Assembly: GCA_044440125.1 (NCBI GenBank)
Contig: JBITAJ010000015.1
Span: 64,001 to 128,000 of the forward strand
Length of the DNA: 64,000 bases
Source of the DNA: Sedimentisphaeraceae bacterium JB056
GTDB taxonomy: Bacteria > Planctomycetota > Phycisphaerae > Sedimentisphaerales > Sedimentisphaeraceae
Reading direction: 5' to 3'
Shown here in pieces: positions 28,501 to 45,517 of the stretch. Every line of letters starts with the position of its first letter. The first letter of the stretch is position 1. A model generated the notes under the pieces. The model was not told the DNA's origin. It ran no database searches and saw only the letters and a list, made by a program, of their open reading frames with translations. Both the position numbers and the translations under genes were made by a program.

Positions 28501-30716
28501 GCATCCTGCTGATCGGCATACATTCCACCTTTTGTATGAGCTTGGGGCACGCACATTAAGTGGTGCAGGAAATTATGTTTCAGCAGGTTGTCGTATGTCC
28601 ACAGGTCGGCTGCCCAATAAATTGCACCGCCATCGCCTTCTTCAATCTGGACATTGAATATTTCATTTTGTTCTATTTCGTTTTCACAACCTGTAGCTGT
28701 CATAACCTGACCAATAAAGTTGTGGACGAGGTTGTTTTTGAATATATTCCCTACGCCGTCAATATTAATGCTGCCGTAAAAATCTTTTGCCTGAATTTGT
28801 GTGAAGTGGCAGTTTTTAACGTAATTACCTGCTGCAGTAATAGTGTTTGGATCATGTACGCCGCCATCAAGTCTGACATGACTGCCGAGGTCGTACAAGT
28901 CGCAGCTAAGCATGCCGTTTTCTGTTCCTCCGGTGAAGTAAACGCCATATCTTGAACAGTTTCTTATTGTACTTCCCTTGATGCTGTTGTATGAGCCACC
29001 GTTAAAATGTATTACGCCTGTACCTGATGTTACGCCCTGTACAGTTATTCCTTCGATGTTTACATATGAACACTCATTCAGTTCAATAAGCCCCGGGCCA
29101 GCCCATACACCAAGTTCTGTTGAAGAATCCATTGTTTCGAGAGGGTAGATGAAAAGCTCATCATTAGCTTCATCATAATACCATTCTCCTGGAGCATCAA
29201 GTTCGCAAAGCAATTCATAGAACGCGATTCTGCGTGGAATGTCTTCCACGTCTATCATTCCATACCTGCTGTGTTCAAGAAGCTGTATTGTTCCATCAGA
29301 GGCTATGTCTGCAATGGTGTGGCTTTCTTTATACCAGTCATAAGACATATAACCTGTTATGCGGGCTTGCTGAGCGTTGCTGAATTCTGTATACCAATTA
29401 CCACTGGTTGTTTCAGAGATTTTGAATTCGGCTCCTATAGGATTTGTCATGCTGTATGTTGGTGCAGGTGGAAGGTCACGTCCTTCTGCCCAGATTGTTC
29501 CAGAGTCAACTATTTGTGATACATGGGCATAGCCAACGTTTGGAAAACGTGATACTCCGCACATCGTACCGTTGAAGGTTATATAGGCACCGTTTTGTGA
29601 AAGGGCGGTTTGTAAGTTGCTATCAGTTATAGAAGCACTGTACACATTGCCACGAGCTGAGGTGCAAAGCCTGTCAAGGTCTGCCTGTGCGGTTACTTCT
29701 GAAAAGTCAGTAGCGTCAAGCATAAGACTGCCGTCAAAAATCACAGTTTCACCACTGTATGGCTTGATTGTTACCGGTTTTCCGGATTCTCCTGATTCGG
29801 TAGAGTTGATGTATGTTGTTCTGTCAAAGTAATATGTGCCGCCTCGCAGATGAACATCAATTCCGCCTGTTGGTAATCCTGATTCATTTTTAATATCTCT
29901 TATTTTGCTTAAAGCCCCCTCTAATGTATTGACAGGTGAAGCTATTGTGCCGAGGTTGTAATCTTTTCCGGTTGTAGAGACATATATATCTGATACTGAA
30001 GTTAATGCGGAGTTATAATCTTTTACATAAGCATTGTCGATATATGTTCCAAGTACACCGCTGCCGCCTCTAAAATTCATTCGATTGGCCGTTGATACTT
30101 CTGTATCTACGTCGGTTCTGCCTGTATCGAAATTGGAAATTCCAGTTGGTATCTCTATGCCGCCTCTTGAAAGATTGTAGACATTGATAGTAGCATATTC
30201 GAAATCTGTTCCGGTAAGCCTCAGTGTCACTCTTAACCAGTCGCCTTTTTCCCAGTATGGACCGTAGTATGTGGCTGAGGCAAAGTTGTTGCCATAATAA
30301 GTTGTGCCACTTTCTCCTGCAGGGCGAATTGCGATGTAGCCGCTTGAGAAACCAACGCTTGGGAAGTAGGTTGTTGAACTTCTCAAATACATTCGCGTAT
30401 TAACTAAGGATGTCTGGTCTTCACGTATATCAAAACCGTACTCAACTCCATCACTGTTTGAAGGGTCGAGTAAAAAATTTACGCCGCTTGAATCATGACG
30501 AGTTGTTTTGTCATCGTATGTGTTTGACCATAGCGATCTGCCGCCGGTATAGTTGGAATCGGTCGTGGTTGCAACCACATTAAATCCAGTATTGGCTTCC
30601 CAGCTTTCCTGGCTTGTCAGGGTGCCAATTGAGAACGTATCGAAGTCCTCATTGAACCCGCCGCAACATATATTAACAACCAATAATACACTTAATAGAA
30701 ACAGTAATTGTTTCAT
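25542..30716 (-). CDS. Large secreted multidomain protein: unrecognised ~215-aa domain + GH141-like beta-helix + Fn3-like + two Gly-rich repeats
   Basis: Signal peptide; IYVSTTGKD...LRGGTYY, SRFPN, ELDAPGEWYYD, DGGAIY; LSWDD..YDVYFGT..YYWAVD..VWSFST; duplicated Gly-rich C-terminus. Confidence 0.85.
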   Translation of the reverse strand: MKQLLFLLSVLLVVNICCGGFNEDFDTFSIGTLTSQESWEANTGFNVVATTTDSNYTGGRSLWSNTYDDKTTRHDSSGVNFLLDPSNSDGVEYGFDIREDQTSLVNTRMYLRSSTTYFPSVGFSSGYIAIRPAGESGTTYYGNNFASATYYGPYWEKGDWLRVTLRLTGTDFEYATINVYNLSRGGIEIPTGISNFDTGRTDVDTEVSTANRMNFRGGSGVLGTYIDNAYVKDYNSALTSVSDIYVSTTGKDYNLGTIASPVNTLEGALSKIRDIKNESGLPTGGIDVHLRGGTYYFDRTTYINSTESGESGKPVTIKPYSGETVIFDGSLMLDATDFSEVTAQADLDRLCTSARGNVYSASITDSNLQTALSQNGAYITFNGTMCGVSRFPNVGYAHVSQIVDSGTIWAEGRDLPPAPTYSMTNPIGAEFKISETTSGNWYTEFSNAQQARITGYMSYDWYKESHTIADIASDGTIQLLEHSRYGMIDVEDIPRRIAFYELLCELDAPGEWYYDEANDELFIYPLETMDSSTELGVWAGPGLIELNECSYVNIEGITVQGVTSGTGVIHFNGGSYNSIKGSTIRNCSRYGVYFTGGTENGMLSCDLYDLGSHVRLDGGVHDPNTITAAGNYVKNCHFTQIQAKDFYGSINIDGVGNIFKNNLVHNFIGQVMTATGCENEIEQNEIFNVQIEEGDGGAIYWAADLWTYDNLLKHNFLHHLMCVPQAHTKGGMYADQQDAGDIFSENVFYKAAHRAILLNGGAGHSVINNVFLDGYIGVYQTESYAQDAYDDLAHYDAGDPGYTRGDVGDYIWRTEQVVGVEGWKYNPWDIAYPLFKTVMNQTGTDGRMWPIECNFDDNMFYGNTNNFEWRYSWSSATNDISTVSMVSASDNRDIAMSVFTDPNCLNFEFASPAPTWAPDIPFEDIGLYTDSYRISMPIKDKYRKVIKDHWSNRESYDASATYNTSTINDLLYYNTGEVLTRKSATNPNPDVNDIVNITSTLSWDDSVWADSYDVYFGTNLTDVTNGTGETYQGNVSTASYSSISLSPDTTYYWAVDTIDPNSNVIAVGEVWSFSTNENVVITSSDTIAFDTSAGTYSINSGSAVSGSIANGIATYSFNDLNIQSGSTVTVTGTNAIKLVAAEDIDISSSIDVSGADAITGITGASASPGGGAGGDGGTANTGLGSAGSGSGAGQPSSKYYQAGGGGGFGGSGGDGHLQDNYGGAGGSTYGDITVSTLQGGSGGAGGGGNSGGGGAGGAGGGAIKIVAGQDISINADINADGGDGGYNTTISYRGGAGGSGGAIVLDAGNSVTIASNITLSANGGDGGDLYKVGSGGGGGGGGRIAIAAASLIVAGTTQDVGNIDSLTAFEVNGGIGGDVSDLDPTRKGDDGSDGTAYSSGKAVTVTSSDNIAFDTTNGTYSINSGTNVDGNVAGSIATFYFGDLDIQSGSTVTVTGVNPLILRASGNVDIDGTIDVSGNDSTSGGTGAAGVLGGSSGGNGGAANSGLGANGSGSGGGTASTADWNAGGGGGFGGLGGQGAYNASYGGAGGSTYGNLTVSTLQGGSGGAGGGGNAGGGGAGGAGGGAIKIDADGDITITGTINATGGDGGYNTVISYRSGAGGSGGAIVLESASDVVINANALLNVDGGDGGVSYKPGCGGGGGGGGRIAIIADTLIVNGVSQSTGTLSGLSQLSSTGGAGGEASTYEASRRGSAGSAGTIYYTN
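25545..27480 (-). repeat. Intragenic tandem duplication of a ~324-aa Gly-rich unit
   Basis: CCTTGCAGGGTTGAGACTGTAA at 26029 and 27001 (period 972 nt); both units start V(I/T)TSSDxIAFDT and share STLQGGSGGAGGGG and GGSGGAIVL. Confidence 0.9.
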
Positions 30717-30812
30717 TATTTATCTCCTTATTTAGGTGAAACTCTTTCTATATCTTCTGCAGCTTCCTTGTAACATCGTAAGGAAACTATTACATTACAT
30801 ACGCACCTATTA

Positions 30813-30896
30813 TCAACACCAACATGGTAAAGCCGGTGGAGGTATGCCGGTTATCTGCGCGAACCGGTGCTGTGAAGACTTAGGGTAAATAGTCAC
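30813..30896 (-). CDS. Possible 27-aa leader peptide (MTIYPKSSQHRFAQITGIPPPALPCWC)
   Basis: AGGAGG 8 nt upstream of GTG; lies in the leader of the 1724-aa gene. Confidence 0.35.
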   Translation of the reverse strand: MTIYPKSSQHRFAQITGIPPPALPCWC

Positions 30897-31179
30897 TATT
30901 AATTCCTCCTATAAATCTTTTAGGTTGTTCAGTGAAGTGAGGCAGTGGAGATTATTTATCAAAATTATTTTTATATAATTTCAGTTATGCGTTTATTTTT
31001 TCTAATGTAATCAAACAGCTCTTGGCGTCATTTGACATTAGTGTTATACCGTAGTGTTTTTATCTTCAGGTGTTAGGCCTGCTGCTCCGATCAGCTCTGC
31101 TGTGAGTGTAGATTTCTTCTCAGTAAAATTCTGAATGGTTTGCAGGCAGGTATTATTTACGATTTTTGCGCATAAATAA

Positions 31180-31209
31180 CACTCATTGCCGAATGAACGG
31201 CAATGAGTG
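31180..31209 (-). terminator. Stem-loop/terminator downstream of GH2 gene
   Basis: Perfect 12-bp stem CACTCATTGCCG / CGGCAATGAGTG followed by TTATTT on the minus strand. Confidence 0.7.
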
Positions 31210-31277
31210 CTCAGAACAAATTTTGTTTGTTAGTCCGATAAGTTTCCTCCTTAAAAAAACTTCGGGTTTATTATGTT

Positions 31278-34200
31278 TCAGGACACAAGCATCCCTTTAT
31301 TTTTTATATTGTCGCATTGTAGGCCTAAGAGCCTCATTGCGAACATTTTAGCCGTTGGGTTTGTAGAGGTTCTTCCGGCAATATTCAGTTGATTAACTAT
31401 GAAGGAACCTTTGCCGTGTTTCTTCTCTCCGCAAGCAATAACCTGACACCAGTTTGAGTTGTCATCAGCGTTTCCGGCGTTAAGTATCGGCTTGATATCG
31501 TCACCAGTAAATGTCGTCTCTACTACCGGAGATATCATATCGGCTGACGGATCGTACCAATAGTTGAAATCGAATTCTTTGAATCCTTCAACCAGTTCAT
31601 GGTTTGTTTTTCTTGATACGAAATGAAGCGGATTGAATCGGCTGCTTTTGACATCTATAATGCTTCCGGCTATATCGTACTTGTCTTCATTGACAAGCCC
31701 CATGAAAATAGCAGTGGCACCATTTGATACCATTGTGTCTATCTGTTTCTTGTTATCAAGATAATCAGTGTAGTCACTTATTATTATAATATCACTGTTT
31801 CCTAACGGTACATTTTTCAAACCTATTTCATTCGCCAGCTTTTTGCCGGGGCCGTTATGTCCGATTACCGAGACTTCTGTATCAGGAATTTCTATTTGCG
31901 GGAATACTTCAATGTCAGCATAATTATCATTCACCAACTTACCATTGTTGTCAATGATAGCGATTTGAAGTTTCATTTCCTGTCTGTTATCAATTTCAGG
32001 GGCATCAATTTCTATATATCCCTGGAATGTGCTTTTGCACGCTTCTATTTTAGCATCAGCTTTCTGCGAGAAAATGATTTCACCATTACATTCGAGCTGG
32101 TAATGCAGTGTTAAGGATTCTTGTGTCTGAGGCTTGTCGTTTGATATCCATGCCTCAAAACGCATTTTTTCGCCTGAGAAGAATTTTGTCCTGTCGGTTC
32201 GGATTGTCGGCAAGATTGGAGCCAAAGCACTTCTGTAAGCGAAATAACCCTTTTTAGGATTGCGTTCACAGTCCATTATTGTTTTCATCCAGCCTGAGGG
32301 GAAGGCATCTATAAACAAATGCACGGCAAAGGTTACCATACGGTTGTCTCTTCTGAACGCTTCTGTCAGAATTTTAAGTGAACGAGCCTGATGCTGTTGG
32401 CTGGCTTCTATCCAGTCTTTGAGCGAATTACGCGTGTCAAAGAAGAAGTAGTGGAACATTCCTGTCTGAGCCTTGAATATTTTTGAAGGCGTCCAGTTCT
32501 TTTCCTGTTCCTCACTTTGAGGAAGCCAGCTTGTCGGATAGTACTTCCTCATGATTTCCGCGGATTCAAGACCTTCAGCCCCAAATTCACCGCATCCGTA
32601 GTACCAGTCAGGTTTGGTTGGTTGCCAGTGGCCTTTTATCAGCATTCCTATGTCAAGTCCCTGCCCGTTGTACCATGTGGTGTAGCAGTGACGATCCTGA
32701 ATGCCTGCGGCAGGAGGATCGTAGTCGCCGTCGCATGGTTTTATAACGCGGTCGGGATTAAGGTGATGAACTATATCGTCAGCGGCACGGAAGAAGTCTT
32801 CCATTTCATTTCTGCTTATGTTACGATGAGGCTTGTTTTTTCCGTTAGGGAACGGCTCGTTTATATAGCTCATCATAATGTTGCAGGGATGGCTTCTTAC
32901 GAGTTTTTCAACCTCCGCAACTTGCCTTAGGGCTTCGTTGTACTGTGTTCTGGTGATACAGCCGAATGTCGGCAGGTCGCTTTGCGTCATAAGTCCGAGC
33001 ATGTCACAGTAATCGTAAATTTCCTGCTGTACCGGACGCTGGGTCAGACGCAGGAAGTTCATGTTGCATATCTTGGCCAAAAGAATATCGTCAATAAGCT
33101 GGTCAAAATCTTTTTTGAATACGCATTGCTGCTCATGTCCCATTGTATTGGCACCTCGCAGGCGTATAGGTTTTTCATTGAAATACAGTTGGCCTTTGGG
33201 ATCGCTGTTTTCGTCCATACGGAAGCTGCGCATTCCAAAATGCCCCTCTGAGGCATCTATTAGATTACCTTCATTGTCGATAACTTCAACATGAAGCTGG
33301 TAGAGCCATGGCGTCTCAAGTGACCATATATTAGGGTTTTCAATATCAAATGACACATTGAAGCTGTTCTTCCCACGTTCCACAAATAGTGGTATTGGCT
33401 TGTTGTATGTGCCGTCAGCTTTGGCAAAGGCAATATTGAGGTCGTCATTGAGACCGCTGATATTGTTGCTTGAAGGTTTGTATACAAGACCTTCGAAAAT
33501 GGTTTTCTTAAAGTTTCGTCCATAGAGGCTGAGTCTAAGATCTACGGCCTTTTCTCCGATATCACAGCTATGAAGTTCTATATTTGCCTGAGCTGATTTT
33601 TCGGTAAGAAGAGGGCGTACGAAGATATCGCTTACGAAGATTTTGGGCCGAAATTCTACGTAAACATCCTGATATATACCCATGCCGGGCGGGCAGTGAT
33701 GCCATCCATAGTATGGCTCATCGTATCCAAGGCCGGTGGCGGCATATATTTTCTCGCCGCAATGCGTACCGTTCCAGGCGTTGTTGCTGCCCATTATGAA
33801 GTCGTTTTCGACTTTTACTACAAGCGTATTTTCCCCAACACATGCACAACCGGTGAAATCAAACTCAAAAGGAGCGAAAAAACCTTCATGCGATCCGAGA
33901 TATGTGCCATTAATGAATACATGGGCCTTGTAATCAACGCCCTTGAAATGTATGAAAGCGGCTCCGGTGTCAAGTTGCTCTTGTGTAATATTAAATGAAG
34001 TTCTGTAATAAGTAACTGCAAGACCGAGTGGTTCGCCATAGTGGGGAACGTTTACCTGTTCCCATTGCCCATCACCTGAAAGCACTGACAGGAAATTCTT
34101 TTTATCGTTTTCAGTCTCTACCCGCCAGTCAAATTCGGTAAGCCCGATTTTTTTTCGAGTATCTTTGATCGCAGGTGCATGGTTTTGCATGAAGGGCTTA

Positions 34201-34412
34201 TACTGCTGTCTGCGTTTTTCCAGTTCGGTCGAGAGTTTTTCTGCGTTATCTATATGTTCAGCAGGCGAAAAAGCCGCATCCGCATCATTTTCTGAAGGAA
34301 GATATTTTTCTTCAAGCTTTACAGGTGTCGGTTCGACCAGCTGTTTGTCTCTGTATGAAATACGTTGGGAGGCTATATCTGCAAAGACATCGTTTTTTTT
34401 GTTCTGATCCAT
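31278..34412 (-). CDS. Glycoside hydrolase family 2-like protein, no signal peptide
   Basis: HFKGVDYKAHVFINGTYLGSHEGFF, GIYQDV, WSLETPWLY, FGMRSF, LRGAN, RSHPC...INEP (acid/base), GEFGAEG (nucleophile). Confidence 0.85.
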   Translation of the reverse strand: MDQNKKNDVFADIASQRISYRDKQLVEPTPVKLEEKYLPSENDADAAFSPAEHIDNAEKLSTELEKRRQQYKPFMQNHAPAIKDTRKKIGLTEFDWRVETENDKKNFLSVLSGDGQWEQVNVPHYGEPLGLAVTYYRTSFNITQEQLDTGAAFIHFKGVDYKAHVFINGTYLGSHEGFFAPFEFDFTGCACVGENTLVVKVENDFIMGSNNAWNGTHCGEKIYAATGLGYDEPYYGWHHCPPGMGIYQDVYVEFRPKIFVSDIFVRPLLTEKSAQANIELHSCDIGEKAVDLRLSLYGRNFKKTIFEGLVYKPSSNNISGLNDDLNIAFAKADGTYNKPIPLFVERGKNSFNVSFDIENPNIWSLETPWLYQLHVEVIDNEGNLIDASEGHFGMRSFRMDENSDPKGQLYFNEKPIRLRGANTMGHEQQCVFKKDFDQLIDDILLAKICNMNFLRLTQRPVQQEIYDYCDMLGLMTQSDLPTFGCITRTQYNEALRQVAEVEKLVRSHPCNIMMSYINEPFPNGKNKPHRNISRNEMEDFFRAADDIVHHLNPDRVIKPCDGDYDPPAAGIQDRHCYTTWYNGQGLDIGMLIKGHWQPTKPDWYYGCGEFGAEGLESAEIMRKYYPTSWLPQSEEQEKNWTPSKIFKAQTGMFHYFFFDTRNSLKDWIEASQQHQARSLKILTEAFRRDNRMVTFAVHLFIDAFPSGWMKTIMDCERNPKKGYFAYRSALAPILPTIRTDRTKFFSGEKMRFEAWISNDKPQTQESLTLHYQLECNGEIIFSQKADAKIEACKSTFQGYIEIDAPEIDNRQEMKLQIAIIDNNGKLVNDNYADIEVFPQIEIPDTEVSVIGHNGPGKKLANEIGLKNVPLGNSDIIIISDYTDYLDNKKQIDTMVSNGATAIFMGLVNEDKYDIAGSIIDVKSSRFNPLHFVSRKTNHELVEGFKEFDFNYWYDPSADMISPVVETTFTGDDIKPILNAGNADDNSNWCQVIACGEKKHGKGSFIVNQLNIAGRTSTNPTAKMFAMRLLGLQCDNIKNKGMLVS

Positions 34413-34463
34413 ATTAAATATGTTTCCTGGGTTTTACTAAAATTGTTATATATGATTGAGTTA

Positions 34464-34491
34464 ATTTTAGCGGTAAAATGCTATATGTCAA
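34464..34491 (-). promoter_or_regulatory. Sigma-70 promoter for GH2 gene, overlapped by CG-centred palindrome
   Basis: TTGACA, 16 nt, TAAAAT on the minus strand; ATTTTAGCGGTAAAAT (34464-34479) is a near-palindrome. Confidence 0.55.
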
Positions 34492-34596
34492 GGGAATTTA
34501 GCTGTTTTGTGGGTGTTTTGTGAGTAAAATGGCTAAATTTACTAAAGTTTAGTGGTTTTTTAGTTAAAATAAAGTTGTTGTTTTTTTAATAAATCA

Positions 34597-34625
34597 TTGA
34601 CATGCTTCTTTTGTTGTGTTATATT
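34597..34625 (+). promoter_or_regulatory. Sigma-70 promoter (extended -10) for LacI/locus 2 operon
   Basis: TTGACA, 17 nt including TGn, TATATT. Confidence 0.72.
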
Positions 34626-34654
34626 TATTGTAGATTCTGAAAGGATTATTTACC

Positions 34655-35710
34655 ATGAGTATAGCAAAAGTAGCAGAGATTGCAGGTGTATCAAACACTA
34701 CAGTTTCCTTTGTAATCAACGGCAAGCCGGGAATATCTCAGGATACAGTTGATAAGGTTTGGGATGCAATACGTAAAACAGGTTATGTGCCTCGTGGCAG
34801 TGGCGGAGCTAAGAAGGTCTCTGGAGCTGATTCTCCGGGCTTGAAAACCAGGAATATCGGCATTCTTATGCCTGAAGGTGTTATGAGTACTATTCCTTTT
34901 TATGCGCGTCTTTTCGAGGCTATTCATAAGGAGCTTGATAAACGTAACCTTAATATGTCGCCTATACGCTGCGGCAATGCTTCAGATCTCTCCAGGTCAT
35001 CTTTTAATGATCTTGACGGTCTCTTTCTCTGCAATTATCTAAAGAACATTACTGACTTGATTTCGTTTCCTTTTGTGACAATTCTTGGTCATCCCGATGT
35101 GGAAGATAAACTCAATGCCGATCATATAGAACCAGCCAATGACAAAATAGGCGTGATGGCGGCTTCTTATCTTGTAAACCGCGGTCATAAGAAAGTTCTT
35201 TCGATCAATCCCTCTACGACTTCCCATCCTGCTATGATCACGCGATGCCAGTATTTCACCGATTATGTTGCCAAAAAGGGGGGGGGAGCGGAGTTTATGG
35301 AGCTTTCGTTCACAGAACGCGATAAATATGGCAGGCTGCGTGACGGCATGAGTGTCAATAACGTAAGAGAATTCGTGCTGGATTTCAAGAATCGTAAAGA
35401 CCGTCCCACGGCGATATTTATTCCCTGCGACTCGCATATGGTAATAGTGCAGAAGGCTTTTGCGGCAGAGGGCATTAATCCCGGTGAGGATGTTGAATTC
35501 GTGGGATGTAACAATGAGTCTATACTGCTTGACGGTATGGAGCCTCGTCCTACGACGATAGATATTAATCCGCAAGCTATGGCAAGAGCCGCTTTGGTGG
35601 CTCTGCTTCAAAGAATAAAATACCCAGACAGTTACGATGATATATATAAGGTGGTCAGTATTGAACCGTCTCTTGTACTTCATGGTGCCGGTGTCAGGGG
35701 AAAATGGTGA
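34655..35710 (+). CDS. LacI-family transcriptional regulator
   Basis: SIAKVAEIAGVSNTTVSFVING, GHKKV, RPTAIF, PTTIDIN. Confidence 0.93.
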   Translation: MSIAKVAEIAGVSNTTVSFVINGKPGISQDTVDKVWDAIRKTGYVPRGSGGAKKVSGADSPGLKTRNIGILMPEGVMSTIPFYARLFEAIHKELDKRNLNMSPIRCGNASDLSRSSFNDLDGLFLCNYLKNITDLISFPFVTILGHPDVEDKLNADHIEPANDKIGVMAASYLVNRGHKKVLSINPSTTSHPAMITRCQYFTDYVAKKGGGAEFMELSFTERDKYGRLRDGMSVNNVREFVLDFKNRKDRPTAIFIPCDSHMVIVQKAFAAEGINPGEDVEFVGCNNESILLDGMEPRPTTIDINPQAMARAALVALLQRIKYPDSYDDIYKVVSIEPSLVLHGAGVRGKW

Positions 35711-35745
35711 TTTCATAATTTTAATACTTTTTTCAAGGAGCTGTA

Positions 35746-38700
35746 ATGAAAAAGATGTTATTAATGATCGTCGCGGTTATCGTATTGGGTACGTCAGCCC
35801 ACGCCGCATTCAATGAGGATTTTGACACATTCTCTCTCGGTGCATTAACTGCACAGGAAAGCTGGGAGGCGCATGCTACCGTAACGGTTGAAACTACTGC
35901 GACAAGTGGTGAATACACCGGCGGCAGGGCGCTTAAGACTAATTCAACCGGTGATGAATGGCCTCGCCATGATTCAACAGGTGTTGCCCTTGGTCTTACG
36001 CTTGATCAGGACGGTATTGAATACGGTTTCGATGTAAGGGAAGATAATACTTCTGCCGTGAGTGCATATCTCTTTATGCGTCAGGGACGTACTGCTAACT
36101 ACGGTGCGGCAGTTGGTCTTGGTGGAGGCTATTTTGCCATTCGTCCGAATGCTACCAGTGGCGATACTATTACCGGTAACTGGGTAGGAGCCGATGGTGG
36201 AGCGTATTGGGAAAAGGGTGACTGGTTAAGAATAAAAATAAGGCTAACCGGTACAAATTTCAGTACAGCAACTGTTTACTGCTATAATCTGACAAAGAGT
36301 ATCGATGTTCCTACCGGGATTACAGGTTATGATACAGGTATTAATTATCTTTCAAAGGCTGCTTCATGGACAGGTTTAAATTTAAGGCTGACTTTAAGTA
36401 CAGGAACTTATGTTGACAATCTTTATATTGAAGATTACACTGCACCTGTAGCACCTACACCTTCAATGTATATTGAAGATTTTGAGTCAGAAACTCTTGG
36501 TTCAATAAATCAAACAGGTTGGCGTGATAATGCTCCTGCAGTAACAATTGTATCAACCTCAGACAGTGGTGAGTATGTCGGTGGAGCTCAGGCTATGAAG
36601 TCTGGTTCTACGGGTGATGAGTGGCCTCAGTATGCATTAGACAGATTTGTTGATCCTGGTTTGCAGGTTGGCACTTTTGACGGTATTGAAATGGGTTTTG
36701 ATTTCAGAGAAGACAATACCTCGCTTGCAAGCTGCAGAATGCACTTCAGAGTTGATGTAACTAGTTCTTACAGTCCTGCTTTCGGTCTTAATGTTGGCAA
36801 TTTCGCCATCAGAGAAAATGGTGACGGCGGTACTACACATACCGGTAATGCTATTGGAAGCGCCGGTGCGAGCCTGTGGGAAAAAGGTGACTGGGTAAGA
36901 TTGACTCTTGTATTGACAGGTACTTCTTACAGTCGTGCAACTCTTTACGCTTACAACCTTGATAAAGGTGTTGAGATTCCTACAGGTCTTGAGAGTGTTT
37001 CTCTTGCTGTTAGTCCTCAAATCAATGCTGCAGATTGGTCTCGTCTTGTATTCAGGATGGGTAACTCATCAGGTACTTACGTAGATAATGCTTATGTTAC
37101 TGATTATGTGAATACAAATGTACTTGCAGAAAATCCAACTCCTGCAGATGGCGAGTATCCTGTAGCTATTTCAGGCGGCGTAACTCTCAGTTGGGACGGC
37201 GCACCTTCTGCTGATTCTCACAAGGTTTATTTCGGAACTGCCTCAGATGAACTTACTCTGGAAACAGATACAACCTCTGAGTCTTATCTGCTTCCTTATA
37301 CCCTTGAAAAAGGTGTTACATACTACTGGCGTATAGATGAAGTTATTGCCGGTGTTGACAATGAAGGTATGGTTTGGTCGTTTACTACAGAGCTTGGCGA
37401 TTTGAATTATCCTCGCAGAATGGCTTATGAAGGCTTTGATTATGATCAGTATGTTGCGTTAAAAAACACTTCCAATGGTGGTTTTGGCTGGGAAACAAGC
37501 TGGGAACGTTCTGCAGGCGGCTGGTGCTACCTCAATGTAGGTCCTGGAAGTCTTACTCCTGCTATGGATTACCTGCTTGGTACAAATGGCAACCGTATTC
37601 AGCATCCTGCTTCTACTGCTAATGACGGTATGAGAGAGCTCAGCTATCCAATTGATGCGAGAGCTGATCAGGATTACTATATCAGCTATCTTGCTATGGG
37701 TGAATATGATGGGTATAATCAGGTTAATTTCGCTGTTTATGAATCTAAGAGCGGTGCTTATTTATTCCAGAACCACATGTTCTATACCGGTTATTCCGGC
37801 ATAACATCTCCTCAATTTGCGTTGAGAGACCCAAGCGGCGCATGGAATAACAAACTTTACGGTTCATGGGCATCAGATGAAGTTTATGTTGTAGTTGTTA
37901 AAATCAGTGCTACAGCAACCGGTGATGATACTGTTTCTGTAAGCGTATTTGATGCAACTAATCCGCTTCCTGCTACAGAACCGACTGTCTGGGATGAATC
38001 GTTTACTACACAGAGTGACAAGGTTTATCCATGGATATCTATATCAGGTCGAAGTGATGCTTATGACCTTTGGAATATGGACGAAATACATGTAGGAACA
38101 GGCTGGGGAGCTGTAACAGGTTGGGCTGAAGCCTGTGGTGATTTCGGTACTCTAATGGCTTATGATCTTAATGAGGACTGTTATGTAGATCTTGGCGATT
38201 ATGCTTTAATGGCGTCAGATTGGTTTAAGTCAACAGATCCTTCTGTTGAAGGCAGCGAGTGGGTAATTGAGGATAATGATCCTAACTTTACTACACTGTT
38301 TACTGATCTTGATGCTTCTCAGTTAAATGTTTATGAGACAGATACTGTAACAGTTGACGGCAATCTCAGTGAATGGTCAAGCTCTCGCTGGTATAACACT
38401 CTGTTTACTTCAGGTTATCAGACAACAAGTGTAAGTGATGTAACAGATGCAGAAGTTGCTTTGAAATGGGATCCTGCTAATCCTGATACCGTTTATATGG
38501 CACTTAAAGTAACAGATACTAACCAGAGTTTTGCTGCTACTCCTGATGCCTGGAATGCAGGCGATAATATCGAAATACGTTTCAGCGTAAACGATACATC
38601 AAGCAGTGAAACATGGCTTGATAATGAGACTTTCGATACTGCACAGTATTATCAGATATTCCCACAGACCGGTGGTTTCTACGCGAACCTTGGTCCTATC

Positions 38701-39120
38701 GGAACCGCTATGGATGCTGAAGTTTATACTGATATAGAAGCAGCAGTTTCTGTTGACGGTGATATTATCACCTACGAAATAGCTTTGCCTGTTTACAGCA
38801 GCTATGATATTAACAGCCAATCAGGAACTTCTTACAATCTTACTGATAGTGATGTTGTGGCTTTCAATCTCCAGATAAATTCAGTTAATGGTGGAGAATT
38901 TGGCGGATTGTTTGCTGATCAGGGACATGCTCCTGACGGTTGGCCGGCATTTACAGTTACTCTTAACAGCTCATTGCCTCTTGGAGCTTTCGGCTTCTTT
39001 GATGCAGACCTTGATGAGAACGGTATGGTGGGTCTTAGCGATCTTGATACCATAATCTTGAAGTGGTTAAGCTGTACAGACCCTGAAGGTGTTGGCTGCG
39101 ATCAGCCATGGATGCCTTAA
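35746..39120 (+). CDS. Secreted, apparently non-catalytic multidomain protein: 2x unrecognised domain + Fn3-like + CBM9-like domain between two half-dockerin motifs
   Basis: Signal peptide; tandem domains each with WEKGDW.R and TYVDN; LSWDG..HKVYFGT..YYWRIDE..VWSFTT; VDGNLSEW...YMALKVTD; DLNEDCYVDLGDY and DLDENGMVGLSDL..WLSCTDP. Confidence 0.82.
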   Translation: MKKMLLMIVAVIVLGTSAHAAFNEDFDTFSLGALTAQESWEAHATVTVETTATSGEYTGGRALKTNSTGDEWPRHDSTGVALGLTLDQDGIEYGFDVREDNTSAVSAYLFMRQGRTANYGAAVGLGGGYFAIRPNATSGDTITGNWVGADGGAYWEKGDWLRIKIRLTGTNFSTATVYCYNLTKSIDVPTGITGYDTGINYLSKAASWTGLNLRLTLSTGTYVDNLYIEDYTAPVAPTPSMYIEDFESETLGSINQTGWRDNAPAVTIVSTSDSGEYVGGAQAMKSGSTGDEWPQYALDRFVDPGLQVGTFDGIEMGFDFREDNTSLASCRMHFRVDVTSSYSPAFGLNVGNFAIRENGDGGTTHTGNAIGSAGASLWEKGDWVRLTLVLTGTSYSRATLYAYNLDKGVEIPTGLESVSLAVSPQINAADWSRLVFRMGNSSGTYVDNAYVTDYVNTNVLAENPTPADGEYPVAISGGVTLSWDGAPSADSHKVYFGTASDELTLETDTTSESYLLPYTLEKGVTYYWRIDEVIAGVDNEGMVWSFTTELGDLNYPRRMAYEGFDYDQYVALKNTSNGGFGWETSWERSAGGWCYLNVGPGSLTPAMDYLLGTNGNRIQHPASTANDGMRELSYPIDARADQDYYISYLAMGEYDGYNQVNFAVYESKSGAYLFQNHMFYTGYSGITSPQFALRDPSGAWNNKLYGSWASDEVYVVVVKISATATGDDTVSVSVFDATNPLPATEPTVWDESFTTQSDKVYPWISISGRSDAYDLWNMDEIHVGTGWGAVTGWAEACGDFGTLMAYDLNEDCYVDLGDYALMASDWFKSTDPSVEGSEWVIEDNDPNFTTLFTDLDASQLNVYETDTVTVDGNLSEWSSSRWYNTLFTSGYQTTSVSDVTDAEVALKWDPANPDTVYMALKVTDTNQSFAATPDAWNAGDNIEIRFSVNDTSSSETWLDNETFDTAQYYQIFPQTGGFYANLGPIGTAMDAEVYTDIEAAVSVDGDIITYEIALPVYSSYDINSQSGTSYNLTDSDVVAFNLQINSVNGGEFGGLFADQGHAPDGWPAFTVTLNSSLPLGAFGFFDADLDENGMVGLSDLDTIILKWLSCTDPEGVGCDQPWMP

Positions 39121-39134
39121 TGCATTGAATAATA

Positions 39135-39164
39135 GTCGGGGTGCAAATTGCACCCCGACATTTT
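39135..39164 (+). terminator. Strong intra-operon hairpin/weak terminator
   Basis: GTCGGGGTGCA-AAT-TGCACCCCGAC followed by ATTTT. Confidence 0.7.
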
Positions 39165-39254
39165 AATAAGTATTTTCAGCTTTTTATCATTATAAAGGTG
39201 GTCAAAAGCCGGAAATATGCGTAATGTAAAATTAACTTTTTTGAGGATAATAAA

Positions 39255-40076
39255 ATGAAAAAGATGACTCCAAAACAAGGCTTTACTCTTATTGAACTTC
39301 TTGTTGTAATTTCTATAATTGCTATCTTGATGGCAGTGATGATGCCTGCACTTGGCAAAGCAAGAGAGGTTGCCAAGAATGTTATATGCCGTTCCAATAT
39401 AAAAGGAATTGGTACAGCTTCGTTGCTCTGGAGTGAAGATAATGAGAACTGGGTGCTTCCTGCTCTTTGGGACAGAGGCAACAGCGAAGGTGACAGTTTA
39501 CTCTTACCCTATCTTGGTGATGCCGAAGCCGGCAGTAAAGTCATGCTTTGTCCTGCAGTACCGGCAAAATATGCAGGGAAGACATATGAAGAGCTTGGTC
39601 TTGAGAAAGATGTTGCAGGTCTTGCAAACGGAGGTAACTATTACAACAGCTACGGTTATAATATGAAGCTTTGTGCACCGACAAGCCAATGTCCGGGAAG
39701 TTATGACAAATCTAATGATGACGGCAGTACCTGGGGTAAAGACGGCGTGTGGTATAAGAAGCATGGTAACTGTAAATTGTTTAGCATACGTAAACCGTCA
39801 ACAACAATTATGTTTGCTGAAAGTATTGTATATCTCAGCTATCCTGAATATTACACCAAAGCCATGGCAAACCCTGCTTTCAGCGATCCGGCAGCGAGAG
39901 GTCGTCGTCATAATCCCAAAAAGAGACGCGTCGGCAGCGATGATGTTGAGTACTGCGGCAACATGAACATTGCCTGGATGGATGGCAGTGTATCTGAAGA
40001 ACCTGATGATATGGATATTCGCTCTGACGATGGAAGAACCTACAATATCAACGGCAACTACTGGTATGGAAAATAA
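39255..40076 (+). CDS. Prepilin-type N-terminal cleavage/methylation protein (DUF1559-like)
   Basis: [47 protein letters not shown]-terminal RRH...[11 protein letters not shown]. Confidence 0.93.
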
Positions 40077-40230
40077 GCTAACGTTGGCTTTATCCTCAAT
40101 CAGCAACAAAAGAATTAAGGATGTAGTTAACTATCGCTCACGATTTTATGGTATTTCCATCTACTAACTTCTATATTCTATATTCTATGTTCTTGTATTA
40201 AAGTTAATAACCATCTATTCAGGATAGAAA

Positions 40231-43200
40231 ATGAAATACATAGCAATTCTCTTAGTTCTTGTTTTGTCAGGATTTTCTGCGGGTTCGACAGTATATTTTG
40301 ATCTTGATGATAGCTACATTGTTTCAGGTAATTGGAATACTGTTAGTGATTGGACCGAGGGCGTACACGTTATTGATGCTATCGACAGTGATGGTAATCA
40401 GACCGCTGTTTCCTTGAATTGTGCCGATGGTTTTGCTATGTATAATTCAAGCGGTGAATCGGCTGTAACAGCTTATCCGACAGAAGCGGGAATGGATTCT
40501 TTTTATCTTTCATATTCCAACAGTTATGCGAAAATTCAGATAGGCGGTCTGACGGAAGGACAGAGTTATGATTTTACGTTTTTCGGTTCACGTGCATCAA
40601 GCGGCCCCAGAGCTCTCGATATATCTATCGGCGGCACTCAAGTTACTCTTGATGCGGCATACAATATAAGTGATACCGTTACAATAAACGGAGTAGTTGC
40701 GCCGTCAAGCGGAATAGTGCAGATTAGTGTTTCGCTCTCTTCGGGCAGTAGTTACGGCTATCTTGGTGTTATCGAGATAAACGGCAATTTCGCTGCCCCT
40801 CAAATTCAGCCCGAAGGCATTTTTGTCGCTCCGTGGGGTCTTGATTCCAACCCGGGTACGTATAACTGGCCTAAAGCTACGATGTCAGGTGCTTTTGATG
40901 CGGTTGCTGATTATAAGCAGACTAACGGCTTACCGGTCGGCGGGTTGGACGTGAATTTCAGAGGCGGTCATTACTATTTTACTTCTACTGCTTTTGCTGA
41001 TAGTTCTATAGATGGCGAGGCAGGAAAACCTGTAACATTTAAGCCTTACAATGATGAAGAGGTTATTTTTGATGGAAGCGTTGAGATTAACAGCAGTGAC
41101 TTTTCACTTGTAACAGACCAGAGTGTTTTAGGGCGGCTTGGAGATAATGCTGCGGGTAATGTATATGGTTGTTATATTTCTGAGAGCAGTTTGAGAGATC
41201 AGCTTTCAAATGTAAATTCAGTTGTTGATCTTGATGGTAAAATGGCTCAGGTGAGCCGTTATCCAAATGTAGGAAATTCGCATATTGACAGTGTTATAGA
41301 TGCTGGTGAGATTTACGCTGTTGGTCGTACACCGGGTGATCCGCCGACTTACAGTATGTCTGACCCTATCGGAGCGGAATTTACTATACAAGAAACTGAT
41401 GCCGCAGAGTGGGAACTTGAATACCAATCTGTACAAAAGGCAGTTCTTACCGGTTATCTTGCTAATGACTGGTATAAGGAAAGTCATACAATCGCCTCGA
41501 TTAATTCCGGTGCAGTCAAATTATTGGAATACAGTCGATATGAGATAAACAGCAGTGGTGCAAGAAGATTTTATGTACTCAATCTTATGTGTGAATTAGA
41601 TTCAGAGGGTGAGTGGTACTTTGATGAGTCTGCGAATATTCTTTATGTATGGCCTTATGAACCGATAACCTCACAGACCGATATTGGTGTGTGGAATGGT
41701 CCTGAATTTTTGAAAATATATTGCAGTTATGTTAATTTTGAAGATTTTATAATTCAGGGAACAACACAGGGAGCAAGCGGAAGCGGTATGATTACTTTCT
41801 ATGCCGGTGATAATGTTAAATTTACCGGTTGTACCTTCCGTAATACCTCAAGACCTGCCGTCTCTTTCATGTCAGATTGCACAACTACAAACAGTGGTGT
41901 TGTCGGATGCGATTTTTATGATGCTTCTTCACACCTGAATATCTACGGTGGAGTAGCTGATGAGAATGAGATAACTGCCGCCGGTAATTACGCTATAAAC
42001 TGCCATTTTACACAGGTTCAGGCACGTGATTATCTTGGCCGTGTGTATTTCCGTGGTGTTGGCAATATTTTCCGCAACAACCTGATTCACAATCTGCCTG
42101 ATGATCCTGTAAAAGCAGGCGGATATGATAATGTTTTTGAACTTAACGAAATATTCAACTGCGGCTTTGAGAGTGGTGATGGCGGAGCTATATATTGGTC
42201 AGCCGGTATGGAAAGTTATGGGAATATATTCCGCAACAATTTTCTTCATCATCTCATGTGTACTCCCGGATTGCATCCAAAGGGTGGAATGTATCCTGAT
42301 CAGCTTGATGCCGGTGATACTTTTCAGCAGAATGTTTTTTATAAGGCGGCACATAGAGCTATACTTCTCAATGGCGGTGCAGGGCATCGTGTAGAGGCGA
42401 ATGTTTTCCTTCAAGGGTGTATTGGGTTGTATCAGACTGAAAGCTATGCGCAGGGTGCTTATGACGACATACCTCTTTACGATAACGGTACACTTACCCG
42501 CGGTGATGTTGGTGATTATATCTGGCGTACAGAACAGGTTGTCGGCGTAGAAGGCTGGAACAGTGAACCATGGCTTTCTCATTTTCCATTGTTTGCAACT
42601 GTTATGAATCAGGAAATGATGCGTTTCTGGCCAATTGAAAACTATTTCAATGATAATATGTTCTATGGAAATACCGATAGTAATCTTCAATATCGATTTA
42701 CTTCAAGCAGCGTTACTACTGATTTTGCATCACTTCCATCTTATGTGAGCGCAAGCGATAACAGGAATATAACACTTGATGTTTTTGTTGACCCATCTAA
42801 GCTCAACTTTAAATTTGTTGATAATGCACCATTGTGGGCACCTGCAATACCTTTTGATAACATCGGTCTTTATGTTGGCGATGGAAGGACAAGTGTGCCT
42901 AATAAAAACACTTATCGCAGCCTGATTAAAGAAAATTTTGCCGCTCGTCCAAGTTATGACGAATCTGCTTCGTATAATCCAGCTACGATAAACTCTCTGG
43001 TTTACTATAATACAGGTGAGCTTCTTATGAATCTACCTGATGCAGATTTTAATAGTGATGGCATTGTGAATATGCTTGATTATTCAGTGCTTGGCAGTGA
43101 ATGGCAACGAAGCGATGAAGAGTTTCAATGGAATGTATTTGATTTTGATACATTCACACTTGGCGAGCTTACTGCACAGCAAGGCTGGGAGGCTAAGAGC

Positions 43201-43881
43201 ACAATAGATGTTGTAGCAACCTCTGATGATGGTCTTTACACAGCGGGAAGGGCATTGAAAGATAGCAACTATGGTGATGATTGGCCTCGCGCAGATCAAA
43301 ACGGCATTGATTTAGGTATTGACACCTCTCAATGCGATATGATAAAGATAAGCTTTGATGTTCGTGAGGGTACGAATCCAAGTGAGGGAACAACACTTTA
43401 CAGTGCACGTTTATTCCTGCGTAATGGAGCTACATCAAACTATTCTCCTTCATTTGGTATTTCTGCGGGCAAAGTTGCTCTAAGACCAGAAGGTGAGCAG
43501 GGTGATACAATAGAGGGAAATAATCTTGCCGGAAGCGCATATTATGGTGCGGATAAATACTGGGAGAAAGGCGACTGGCTTAGAATTACCCTGATTCTTG
43601 ACGGTGAAACTTACAGGAATGCAACACTTGAAATTAAGAACCTATCAAAAGGCGGAACAGATATACCTACCGGAATAGCAAATATTGATGTCGGCAGAGA
43701 TATTGGCAGTGATGCTTCACTTTGGAACAGACCAACTTTCAGACTCAGCGGTTCTTATAATACTTATGTTGATAATATAATAACTGCGGGAGAAATAAAA
43801 TTTGTCCCTGTGGCTGATGTAACACTTGACGGTAGTGTTGATATTGATGATTTAGCTGAGTTAGCAGCTCAATGGTTATAA
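40231..43881 (+). CDS. Secreted GH141-like beta-helix protein with N-terminal beta-sandwich and a C-terminal unrecognised domain flanked by half-dockerin motifs
   Basis: FVAPWGLDSNPG, FRGGHYY, SRYPN, ELDSEGEWYFD, DGGAIY, YKAAHRAILLNGGAGH; DFNSDGIVNMLDY and DVTLDGSVDIDDL..W. Confidence 0.85.
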   Translation: MKYIAILLVLVLSGFSAGSTVYFDLDDSYIVSGNWNTVSDWTEGVHVIDAIDSDGNQTAVSLNCADGFAMYNSSGESAVTAYPTEAGMDSFYLSYSNSYAKIQIGGLTEGQSYDFTFFGSRASSGPRALDISIGGTQVTLDAAYNISDTVTINGVVAPSSGIVQISVSLSSGSSYGYLGVIEINGNFAAPQIQPEGIFVAPWGLDSNPGTYNWPKATMSGAFDAVADYKQTNGLPVGGLDVNFRGGHYYFTSTAFADSSIDGEAGKPVTFKPYNDEEVIFDGSVEINSSDFSLVTDQSVLGRLGDNAAGNVYGCYISESSLRDQLSNVNSVVDLDGKMAQVSRYPNVGNSHIDSVIDAGEIYAVGRTPGDPPTYSMSDPIGAEFTIQETDAAEWELEYQSVQKAVLTGYLANDWYKESHTIASINSGAVKLLEYSRYEINSSGARRFYVLNLMCELDSEGEWYFDESANILYVWPYEPITSQTDIGVWNGPEFLKIYCSYVNFEDFIIQGTTQGASGSGMITFYAGDNVKFTGCTFRNTSRPAVSFMSDCTTTNSGVVGCDFYDASSHLNIYGGVADENEITAAGNYAINCHFTQVQARDYLGRVYFRGVGNIFRNNLIHNLPDDPVKAGGYDNVFELNEIFNCGFESGDGGAIYWSAGMESYGNIFRNNFLHHLMCTPGLHPKGGMYPDQLDAGDTFQQNVFYKAAHRAILLNGGAGHRVEANVFLQGCIGLYQTESYAQGAYDDIPLYDNGTLTRGDVGDYIWRTEQVVGVEGWNSEPWLSHFPLFATVMNQEMMRFWPIENYFNDNMFYGNTDSNLQYRFTSSSVTTDFASLPSYVSASDNRNITLDVFVDPSKLNFKFVDNAPLWAPAIPFDNIGLYVGDGRTSVPNKNTYRSLIKENFAARPSYDESASYNPATINSLVYYNTGELLMNLPDADFNSDGIVNMLDYSVLGSEWQRSDEEFQWNVFDFDTFTLGELTAQQGWEAKSTIDVVATSDDGLYTAGRALKDSNYGDDWPRADQNGIDLGIDTSQCDMIKISFDVREGTNPSEGTTLYSARLFLRNGATSNYSPSFGISAGKVALRPEGEQGDTIEGNNLAGSAYYGADKYWEKGDWLRITLILDGETYRNATLEIKNLSKGGTDIPTGIANIDVGRDIGSDASLWNRPTFRLSGSYNTYVDNIITAGEIKFVPVADVTLDGSVDIDDLAELAAQWL

Positions 43882-43894
43882 GAATGGCTTTTTT

Positions 43895-45517
43895 ATGAAT
43901 CGTAGGACTTTTCTTAAAGGTATATGTGCGGCGGGTGCTTGCTCTTTAGTTTCTGATACTGTTTTTTCTTCAGAAAAGAAGCGAAGGCCCAATGTTGTAT
44001 TTATAATTGTTGATGATAGTGAATTTGTCGAATACGGTTGTTACGATGGCATGGCTCTTACTCCAAATATCGATAAACTCGCGAACAGCGGCGTTAAATT
44101 TGAGAATGCATTTACCAGCTCTTCGGTTTGTACGCCGACAAGATATACCTGTCTTAGCGGTAAGTATGCAAGCAGGGCAAAGTCGCTTCTGACTGAAGAT
44201 AAGCAACCTGAAGATATGCCAAGATTTGTTCGCTGGAACAGCCATCTTAAATCTGGTGGATGGAATGTCGCGTCTGTATTGCAGAAAAATGGTTACTTCA
44301 CAGGGCTATGCGGTAAATGGCATGTTGGGCATGGTGAGTATTACCAAGAGCATCTGAAGGCACTTAATGTGCCGGCAGAAGTTTCACAGGCAGATCAAAT
44401 TGATCCTACTAACCCAATAGTTGATAAATATCTTGAAGAAAAATATGCTTTGCAGGTAGAAGATATTAAGAGGAGCTTTGGGTTTGATTTTGTTGGCAGT
44501 TTTTATTCCGGCAATCTTACCGATTATCCCAAGAACTATTCAAAATTAAATAAACATAATCACGACTGGATAACCCAATCAGCTTTGAATTTCATAGATG
44601 AATCACAGACGAAACAAAAGCCTTTTTTCCTGTATTTATCAACAACGCTTCAGCATGGTCCTACGCCTTTGAATTCTATTGAGGCGGATAGGAAAATCAC
44701 ATCAAAGGGACTGCTTGAAAAAGCTCCGGATGTTCAGCCTGGCTTCAAGTCGATGTATAAGAGGCTTGATGACGCAGGTGTTTCCAGAGAGATGGCTCCT
44801 TCTTTGTGGCTCGATGATGGAGTTGGTGCGGTTATGAAGAAATTGAAAGATTACGGCATTGAAGATGACACTGCCGTTTTCTTTTTTTCTGACCAGCAGT
44901 CATGGGGCAAGGGAAGTTGTTTCGATGGAGGTGTAAGAACTCCCTTAATATTCAGTTGGAAAGGGAGTGTAAAATCATCACAGGTTGAGGAGAATTTAGT
45001 CTCAAATATTGATTTTGTACCTACAATTTTTGATATATGCTCAGTTGAGGCACCTGCGGGTATGAAACTTGACGGCAGGAGTTTTCTGCCGCTTGTCAGT
45101 GGCGAATCAGAAGATTGGAGAGATGCCGTCTTTTTTGAACTTGGTAATATGAGGGCTGTAAGAACCAAAAGTTTTAAGTATATAGCTACTCGAAGCTATA
45201 CTGAAAAGCAATGGCAGGAGTTTCCTGAAGATGTTCGCCGGTCGCAGTGGTACAGAAGAAAGTATTTTAGGCTTAATTCAACATGGAAACCGCCATTAGA
45301 ATCAACAGCTTCAGTTTCGGCTGTGGCAAAATGGCGGCATGAACATTTTCAATATGCCGAAGATGCTGATCAGTTGTATGATTTGCGAATTGATCCGAGT
45401 GAGAATATGAACCTTGCAGATAGTATTGAGTATCAGGGTATACTAAAAAGAATGAAAAGTTTGCTTACAGATTGGCTTCAAACTATGCCTGGTTCTTTTG
45501 CAGAGTTTAAACAATAG
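43895..45517 (+). CDS. Sulfatase (S1, formylglycine-dependent) with Tat signal
   Basis: NRRTFLK Tat motif; RPNVVFIIVDD, CTPTR, GKWHVG, VSNIDFVPT, LYDLRIDPSE. Confidence 0.95.
   Translation: MNRRTFLKGICAAGACSLVSDTVFSSEKKRRPNVVFIIVDDSEFVEYGCYDGMALTPNIDKLANSGVKFENAFTSSSVCTPTRYTCLSGKYASRAKSLLTEDKQPEDMPRFVRWNSHLKSGGWNVASVLQKNGYFTGLCGKWHVGHGEYYQEHLKALNVPAEVSQADQIDPTNPIVDKYLEEKYALQVEDIKRSFGFDFVGSFYSGNLTDYPKNYSKLNKHNHDWITQSALNFIDESQTKQKPFFLYLSTTLQHGPTPLNSIEADRKITSKGLLEKAPDVQPGFKSMYKRLDDAGVSREMAPSLWLDDGVGAVMKKLKDYGIEDDTAVFFFSDQQSWGKGSCFDGGVRTPLIFSWKGSVKSSQVEENLVSNIDFVPTIFDICSVEAPAGMKLDGRSFLPLVSGESEDWRDAVFFELGNMRAVRTKSFKYIATRSYTEKQWQEFPEDVRRSQWYRRKYFRLNSTWKPPLESTASVSAVAKWRHEHFQYAEDADQLYDLRIDPSENMNLADSIEYQGILKRMKSLLTDWLQTMPGSFAEFKQ

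Follow-up and report, generated by a model that had tools for sequence, protein, structure and literature searches.

In this study, we analysed a 64,000-nucleotide stretch of DNA from Sedimentisphaeraceae bacterium JB056 (phylum Planctomycetota; assembly GCA_044440125.1, contig JBITAJ010000015.1, positions 64,001 to 128,000; referred to as the window) that encodes four copies of a protein module of ~210 residues without a family name. All four copies are in frame where an earlier sequence-only reading of this DNA had placed them, in three open reading frames (ORFs) of 1724, 1124 and 1216 amino acids (aa). Copy A (30015..30656, minus strand; BLASTP and alignment) comprises residues 21-234 of the 1724-aa ORF (25542..30716, minus strand), right behind a signal-like N-terminus, and is followed by a GH141-like beta-helix enzyme domain of a subfamily termed A (27747..29996, minus strand; approximately residues 241-990; Asp motifs DGGAIY and YxD kept), an FN3-like domain and two Gly-rich repeats. 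Copies B1 (35809..36438, plus strand; residues 22-231) and B2 (36469..37107, plus strand; residues 242-454) lie in tandem in the 1124-aa ORF (35746..39120, plus strand), ahead of an FN3-like domain, a second beta-sandwich, and a CBM9-like domain flanked by two dockerin-like half repeats. Copy C (43138..43785, plus strand; residues 970-1185) belongs to the 1216-aa ORF (40231..43881, plus strand), which starts with an N-terminal domain and continues with a GH141-like beta-helix enzyme (approximately 40801-43050) and a split dockerin-like tag that encloses the module. The two EF-hand half repeats of that tag (43039..43122 and 43810..43878, plus strand) were recognised by motif, the first also matching Pfam Dockerin_1 below the cut-off (E 0.006).

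The four copies align over their whole length with pairwise identities of 40-48% (BLASTP E 4e-42 to 1e-63) and have 48 invariant columns. The motifs FDxRE, WEKGDW[LV]R, NL...PTG and TY[VI]DN, to which the sequence-only reading had drawn attention, are present in all four, and B2 carries I instead of L in G.L..Q..W. The two beta-helix domains that carry a module in the window are 53% identical, in agreement with their assignment to one subfamily. At the DNA level, identity between the copies is 68-88% over 32-142 bases only; because similarity is restricted to such short stretches, the copies represent old duplications. A repeat or assembly artefact is ruled out by those short stretches together with syntenic loci in other genomes.

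When the complete 4.5-Mb genome, translated in all six frames, was searched with a profile of the copies, the same four alone were matched (next E 0.24). The view that the module is confined to this locus holds to that extent, but a broader profile added two distant relatives on another contig of the genome, C11 (E 8e-10 and 3e-4), with no match at E<=1 in the reversed-sequence control. Those relatives (L008:9031-13320) sit in a locus of sulfatase and BNR-repeat genes, and some of the conserved arginines described below are missing from them.

Predicted fold and conserved residues of the module

An AlphaFold2 model of copy B1, built with 30 sequences, was nearly all beta (predicted local distance difference test, pLDDT, 96.8; predicted template modelling score, pTM, 0.92), and every structure search with it returned concanavalin A (ConA)-like sandwiches, with model residues 1-210 aligned. 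The sequence-only reading had predicted a jelly-roll and proposed AlphaFold modelling with a structure search; the resulting two-sheet sandwich of the ConA-like lectin/glucanase type supports that prediction. The best structural neighbour was calreticulin (Z 14.8, root-mean-square deviation [rmsd] 3.1, 179 residues aligned), and further matches included phage CBM2 (Z 13.7, rmsd 3.1, 174 aligned), peanut lectin (Z 13.5, rmsd 3.6, 176 aligned; legume lectins in general Z 13-14), the galactocerebrosidase lectin domain (Z 13.2), PL14 (Z 12.3), CBM66 (Z 11.8, rmsd 3.4, 152 aligned), GH16 (Z 11.7), GH131 (Z 11.5), and X122 and Cip1 (Z 10.6 each). All these neighbours have <=17% identity to B1, and the likeness seen in the model is at the level of the fold only, with no close relative. 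The module is a self-contained fold in the model and is fused to GH141-like enzymes, a discrete fold within a carbohydrate-active enzyme being one of the criteria that CAZy applies to a carbohydrate-binding module (CBM), beside demonstrated carbohydrate binding and a lack of catalysis.

Residue conservation was counted over 26 core domains, some of which are nearly redundant. Six residues are invariant among them, namely R112 and R193 (36142-36144 and 36385-36387 in B1, plus strand), G103, N160, D203 and N204, and the two arginines are also largely kept in distant domains (R112 in 15 and R193 in 13 of 16, and both in all five added later). Arginine or lysine occupies position 87 in 22 of 25 domains and position 91 in as many; position 89 is Y, F, H or R in 10, 7, 5 and 3 of 25, respectively, and positions 101-105 contain S/A-x-G. 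From strand alternation, R/K87, the aromatic residue 89, R91, S101, G103, R112, R189 and R193 all point to the polar side of strands that lie next to each other and that form the concave ligand face in the ConA/GH16 topology. This alternation and topology, applied without coordinates, suggest that R112 and R193 line a concave binding face, which D49 (23/24), Y98 (21/26) and E116 (22/26) would flank.

The strands of that putative cleft hold no invariant acid, His, Tyr or Lys in the aligned module domains. The conserved acids are scattered (positions 6, 49, 71, 75, 116, 138, 166 and 203), and the one conserved acid pair, E71 and D75, is on a strand assigned to the opposite sheet, with E71 replaced by Lys in 4 of 25 domains. 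Catalysis of the GH16 type, for which the motif is ExD(x)E, was rejected as no conserved acids form that motif, and PL7, PL14 and PL20 lyases have an invariant catalytic His, Tyr or Lys in their cleft.

Conserved tryptophans and a terminal YVDN strand had been put forward as signatures of carbohydrate binding, and neither interpretation was sustained. W19 and W139 are off the putative binding sheet, and W51, the sole Trp on it, is kept in 12 of 24 domains, compared with 26 of 26 for R112 and R193. A Trp-platform binding site was rejected on the position of the former two and the variability of the latter; W19 and W139, which are kept even in distant relatives, are read as structural from the alignment. 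The structural calcium site of ConA-like proteins consists of an N-terminal loop, a Gly and a C-terminal Asp, and D/E6 (23/23), G39 (23/24) and D203 (26/26) would fit such a site. The terminal D-N of the YVDN strand is likely part of it, consistent with the calcium site described in the cited part of PMC10916295.

Comparison with known systems places these features in context. Members of the ConA-like superfamily (calreticulin/calnexin lectin domain, 5hcf, 3pos and 1jhn; L-type lectins, 1ciw and ERGIC-53 1r1z; phage J-1 Dit CBM2, 5ly8) have the same sandwich over the whole model (Z 12.5-14.8, 174-180 aligned), but at an rmsd of 3.1-3.6 A and 9-17% identity, with no sequence-profile match and with many unrelated families tying within 1-2 Z units. 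CBM66 (4b1m), domain 4 of the GH43 enzyme AbnA (5hon) and the CBM40-type domain of Vibrio cholerae sialidase (2w68) are sandwiches appended to glycosidases (Z 10.9-11.8), and we propose a like role for the module; it differs from them in being larger (210 versus 165-206 residues), in having GH141-like hosts and in also occurring alone with a PEP-CTERM anchor. X122 (8q28, 8q2a) and Cip1 (3zyp) are orphan jelly-rolls that, according to the cited part of PMC10916295, have a calcium site and, on the inside, a conserved patch centred on Arg; no function was found for X122 in that work. In contrast to the module, which has two Arg and no conserved His, the X122 patch has a conserved His and Phe, and X122 has other hosts and 13-14% identity to B1. 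WfCBM47 and Fun174A-CBM, beta-sandwiches attached to marine bacterial enzymes that degrade fucan, are the two binding modules for fucoidan named in the cited part of a 2025 review (PMC11943901). The module has no CBM47-type Pfam or PDB match and is found on GH141-like rather than GH174 hosts, Fun174A-CBM having been compared by description only.

Family status, carriers and distribution

The claim that this is an unrecognised domain was borne out in Pfam, NCBIfam, PHROGs, PDB sequences and the fold search. None of the four window copies matched Pfam (E<=0.1) or PHROGs, PDB sequences searched with two profiles gave chance matches only, and 30 aligned members searched against Pfam and NCBIfam gave only matches to tags and anchor motifs, besides GEVED once (E 0.004) and CBM_25 once (E 3.6). 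No Pfam or NCBIfam hidden Markov model (HMM) of the LamG, DUF1080, CBM or Polysacc_lyase families matched over the module, the DUF6645 and Sialidase-like_CBM HMMs gave no match to the window copies, and HHalign comparison with the LamG protein of a neighbouring locus returned a probability of 1.7. The ESM Atlas neighbours of one homologue, P0022, were nameless PEP-CTERM clusters of Verrucomicrobiota/Planctomycetota (PVC) bacteria with feature scores of 0.97-0.98. Further away were clusters of TSP_C, lyase, LamG, legume-lectin, DUF6645, DUF6772 and Sialidase-like_CBM proteins, which share few features with it, the last three named families scoring 0.92-0.94 with 124-156 of 256 features in common with P0022. 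No description of the module was found in the literature by a word search, which cannot reach a nameless domain and covered main texts without supplements. The module is a family without a name inside a known superfamily. It is probably a new CBM family, set apart by Pfam, NCBIfam, PHROG and PDB searches and not by dbCAN/CAZy profiles; the fold search yielded no close solved relative, which is still compatible with a numbered CAZy CBM family that is absent from Pfam, such as Fun174A-CBM.

The module family is rare but mobile. A protein search for it found 11 proteins, and among 1.84 billion there were 34 representatives at E<=0.001, 17 of them at E<=1e-30; four weak matches (E 5e-4 to 9e-4) were left out of membership, as were four at E 6e-11 to 3e-9 from a profile that included the PEP-CTERM tail. 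The four-copy profile had no match in 60 relatives or in 400 genomes of the phylum, and metagenome scans gave no locus with the module. Among sequencing runs, none of RNA was listed with the module, and the single DNA run, labelled algae metagenome, may be where this DNA came from. Scanning 185,579 species genomes by pattern produced two real loci, L005 and L006, and the same two, counted once, account for the strong matches in 2 of 250 same-order genomes. A 30-residue match from the pattern scan, L007, was at chance level and was dropped. The sole named carriers are Kiritimatiellales records and the two metagenome-assembled genomes behind L005 and L006.

Both of these loci are syntenic with the window, having in common with it the GH2 glycosidase (31278..34412, minus strand), the LacI-family regulator at the operon head (34655..35710, plus strand), the tandem-module protein (56% identical), the pilin and GH141-like enzymes. 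In the window, the pilin is represented by a prepilin-type gene between the 1124-aa and 1216-aa genes (39255..40076, plus strand; library match to N_methyl, weak match to DUF1559). Each of the two loci has a stand-alone module gene with PEP-CTERM directly behind LacI, of the core type in L005 and of a divergent type in L006. The genome of the window encodes an exosortase, and about 17 of its ORFs end in a PEP-CTERM-like sequence, but it has no anchored copy of the module.

The proteins that carry the module are diverse. It is N-terminal to the enzyme in the 1724-aa protein, C-terminal in a split dockerin tag in the 1216-aa protein, P0007 and P0008, directly C-terminal to the enzyme in P0067, and inserted within the enzyme in P0006 (residues 216-427). 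In addition, modules occur in tandem in P0001-P0003 and P0012 (partial), alone with a signal and PEP-CTERM in P0017, P0019, P0022, P0024 and L005:9052-9804, alone without an anchor in P0014 (a cluster of 10 members), and with other tails in P0009, P0010, P0011 and P0016. It is unusual for one module to be spread across enzymes, a protein that would only bind, and surface anchors.

Pairing of the module with its enzymes was followed in a FastTree tree of 21 GH141-like enzymes, two rows of which are partial. One clade (support 100, nine rows) contains all six core-module enzymes with a recovered enzyme domain and three without the module; a second (support 100, six rows) contains all four enzymes with the divergent variant, which is 22-32% identical to the core module, and two without it; the remaining six rows are module-free. 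The proposal of domain shuffling and repeated fusion to one beta-helix subfamily is supported by six of six core enzyme fusions being on one GH141-like clade, in four positions. Because three of the nine enzymes of the core-module clade go without it, the module is accessory, and it is dispensable since a third subfamily-A enzyme of the window, fused to a GH29 alpha-L-fucosidase (59912..63280, plus strand), is module-free. In the module tree, which leaves out P0024 as too short, enzyme-fused copies fall on separate branches, and an approximately unbiased (AU) test, with groups named after the first tree was seen, rejects a single clade for the enzyme-fused copies (p-AU 4e-6) and for the four window copies (7e-6). 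Therefore, the module was joined to this one enzyme clade on several occasions.

In one genome, G454, three carriers have copies of the divergent variant that are 73-81% identical: an enzyme, a PEP-CTERM protein, and a protein with the variant inserted in its CBM9-like domain. The three carriers appear to belong to one locus, as they are on two contigs whose ends seem to hold halves of one protein. A divergent copy inserted in the CBM9-like domain of a homologue of the 1124-aa protein was observed in L024:1-915 and in P0023 (residues 836-1013).

Proposed role of the module and its alternatives

The locus is a polysaccharide-utilisation cluster whose genes look planctomycete-like. Besides the genes described above, it contains SGNH and other esterases, two URO-D-family proteins, sodium:solute symporters and a sulfatase (43895..45517, plus strand), and its seven GH141-like beta-helix proteins are all seven BLAST matches of the genome; no SusC/D was found among the locus ORFs scanned. 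Two Asp motifs are kept in all 21 aligned GH141-like enzymes, including both module enzymes of the window, and we take them to correspond to D523 and D564 of BT_1002. Those two residues are essential in BT_1002 according to the cited part of PMC12786026. The 1216-aa ORF matches Pfam Beta_helix (E 3e-8), GH141_M below the cut-off (E 0.006), and BT_1002 (PDB 5mqp; E 4e-9), the last largely in an N-terminal stretch; because the PDB match is mainly N-terminal, the enzymes are GH141-like, not proven GH141.

Specificity for a sulfated, fucose-containing glycan, which the sequence-only reading had assigned to the locus, is not supported. Only one of the 73 sulfatase matches of the genome is in this locus, no endo-fucanase was recognised there by Pfam, and HQxWxxxD, the signature of the fucoidan-active GH141*6 branch in section 2.1 of PMC12786026, was present in none of the 21 GH141-like enzymes. 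Fucoidan specificity as an established trait was rejected on the single sulfatase and the missing signature. GH29 and GH141-like genes are markers of fucoidan loci in Planctomycetota, in the cited part of PMC11685898, and their presence suggests fucose in the substrate. The surroundings of L006 include two heparinase II/III-like genes, four sulfatases, GH29, GH38 and BNR. Fucoidan fits the locus no better than a lightly sulfated glycan that is acetylated and contains fucose and uronate, and we consider sulfated fucose itself a rather unlikely ligand of the module.

Taken together, the alignments and the model make it probable that the module is a mobile, extracellular, non-catalytic binder of an acidic glycan degraded by the cluster, likely via its arginine-lined concave face. 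The module proteins would be secreted, and the ligand would be anionic (uronic or sulfated) and gripped through the paired arginines without being cut. On an enzyme, the module would keep the GH141-like domain on its substrate, whereas the tandem module of the 1124-aa protein and the PEP-CTERM-anchored module of related loci would catch the same glycan at the cell surface, which is the job of SusD and surface glycan-binding proteins in Bacteroidota. In a broader reading, which we think somewhat less likely than not, the module would found an Arg-faced CBM family for an anionic glycan and would do the recognising in a system by which PVC bacteria capture glycans without Sus proteins; each locus would deal one ligand-matched variant to a PEP-CTERM anchor, a multivalent dockerin-tagged binder and GH141-like enzymes, so that subtype would predict enzyme subfamily and substrate.

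Several points weigh against a glycan-binding role. The ConA-like fold also carries enzymes (GH16, PL14 and GH131 at Z 11-12), and stand-alone secreted and anchored forms, as in the P0014 cluster, are equally typical of enzymes. The module domains are acidic overall (isoelectric point 4.1-5.6). The subfamily pairing may stem from shuffling among neighbours rather than from matched ligands, and enzyme and module were partly found via each other, with loci in common. In addition, X122 combines this fold with a calcium site and an inner patch centred on Arg, yet in sections 2.6-2.7 of PMC10916295 it displayed no activity and bound none of the glycans tested.

That behaviour of X122 would suit a ligand-less structural or spacer domain, in which a sandwich stabilised by calcium would keep its host proteins in position or make them more stable. 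The galactocerebrosidase lectin domain, which helps form an active site and has a protein as its binding partner, would be a precedent, and Gly and the putative calcium site account for about half of the invariant residues. A spacer would, however, have no need of two invariant surface-side arginines kept to about 25% identity, the module is the sole domain of PEP-CTERM proteins in the same loci, and it is fused at four different positions on one enzyme clade; we consider this explanation improbable. We regard as quite improbable that the module is itself a small enzyme, a PL20/PL14/Cip1-type lyase or a hydrolase beside the GH141-like enzymes. Its fold is common to PL14, GH16, GH131 and Cip1, an arginine has been proposed as the lyase residue in Cip1/X122, free and anchored single-domain forms occur, and polysaccharide-lyase clusters are among the ESM Atlas feature neighbours (0.89-0.90), but the lack of an invariant acid, His, Tyr or Lys in the putative cleft and the missing ExD(x)E motif argue against catalysis, and binding modules are more often duplicated in tandem or inserted in a domain such as the CBM9-like one than enzymes are.

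Alternatively, the module might be a protein-docking tag by which the locus enzymes assemble, much as in a cellulosome, on a partner at the surface, either the locus pilin or the PEP-CTERM copy of the module. The near-identical G454 copies, which an enzyme has in common with an anchored and a scaffold-like protein, would agree with this, as would the related pilin gene in every examined module-bearing locus and the module copy inside a dockerin-like tag. Yet the prepilin-type product is 53-63% identical across four related loci, including loci whose modules are just 22-32% identical; the window copies are only 40-48% identical and the window has no PEP-CTERM copy; and the conserved surface is the site where the ConA-like fold binds sugars. 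Docking is, in our assessment, highly improbable; a complex prediction of B1 with the head of the locus pilin scored 0.00 and was given no weight either way.

Glycan binding by the module would bear on the wider question of how planctomycetes and kin capture polysaccharides without SusC/SusD, and the binding modules characterised for marine glycans of the sulfated or uronic kind are few. Being small, well-folding and of a single domain, and present both on enzymes and by itself at the cell surface, the module offers an easy experimental handle. Its ligand, once named, would reveal what an uncharacterised GH141-like subfamily acts on, and the module could yield a probe for anionic glycans. This significance is tempered by the fold and kind of module being well known, the family being rare, and new CBM families being regularly described.

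Other features of the host proteins and the locus

The 1124-aa ORF had no Pfam match and no recognisable catalytic domain, and its orthologue P0013 matches CBM9_1 and fn3. The remainder of the 1124-aa protein gave a poor model (pLDDT 50), for which the top Foldseek match, CBM9, is a hint only. Its second beta-sandwich (37400-38130, plus strand; ~240 residues) has no family name, is kept in orthologues and has one weak paralogue on contig C18. Split dockerin-like tags, in which a whole domain is between two EF-hand half repeats, were observed at 43039-43878 and 38160-39090 of the window and at L008:9031-10464, where they enclose the module (1216-aa protein), the CBM9-like domain (1124-aa protein) and a distant C11 relative of the module, respectively.

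The Gly-rich repeats of the 1724-aa protein (25545-27490, minus strand) are two in tandem, each of 320 residues with 27-29% Gly, and are 62% identical to each other. They are unique in the genome and without a Pfam match, and we assume that they may be polyglycine-II bundles. The unassigned N-terminal domain of the 1216-aa enzyme (40285-40800, plus strand; 170 residues) is common to enzymes of the other GH141-like clade in L005, L006, L024 and L025.

Two URO-D/MtaA-like genes lie in this sugar locus (45559-46578 and 58829-59896), as they do in L006 and L008, and possibly have a role in stripping O-methyl groups off sugars. A 987-aa protein (46644-49607) combines a beta-propeller-like part with a CehA/McbA metallohydrolase-like part, both below the cut-off. 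Upstream of the 1724-aa gene, a 29-codon frame (30790-30879, minus strand), part of which is similar over a short length to a prepilin cleavage motif, could be a decayed pilin gene or a chance resemblance.

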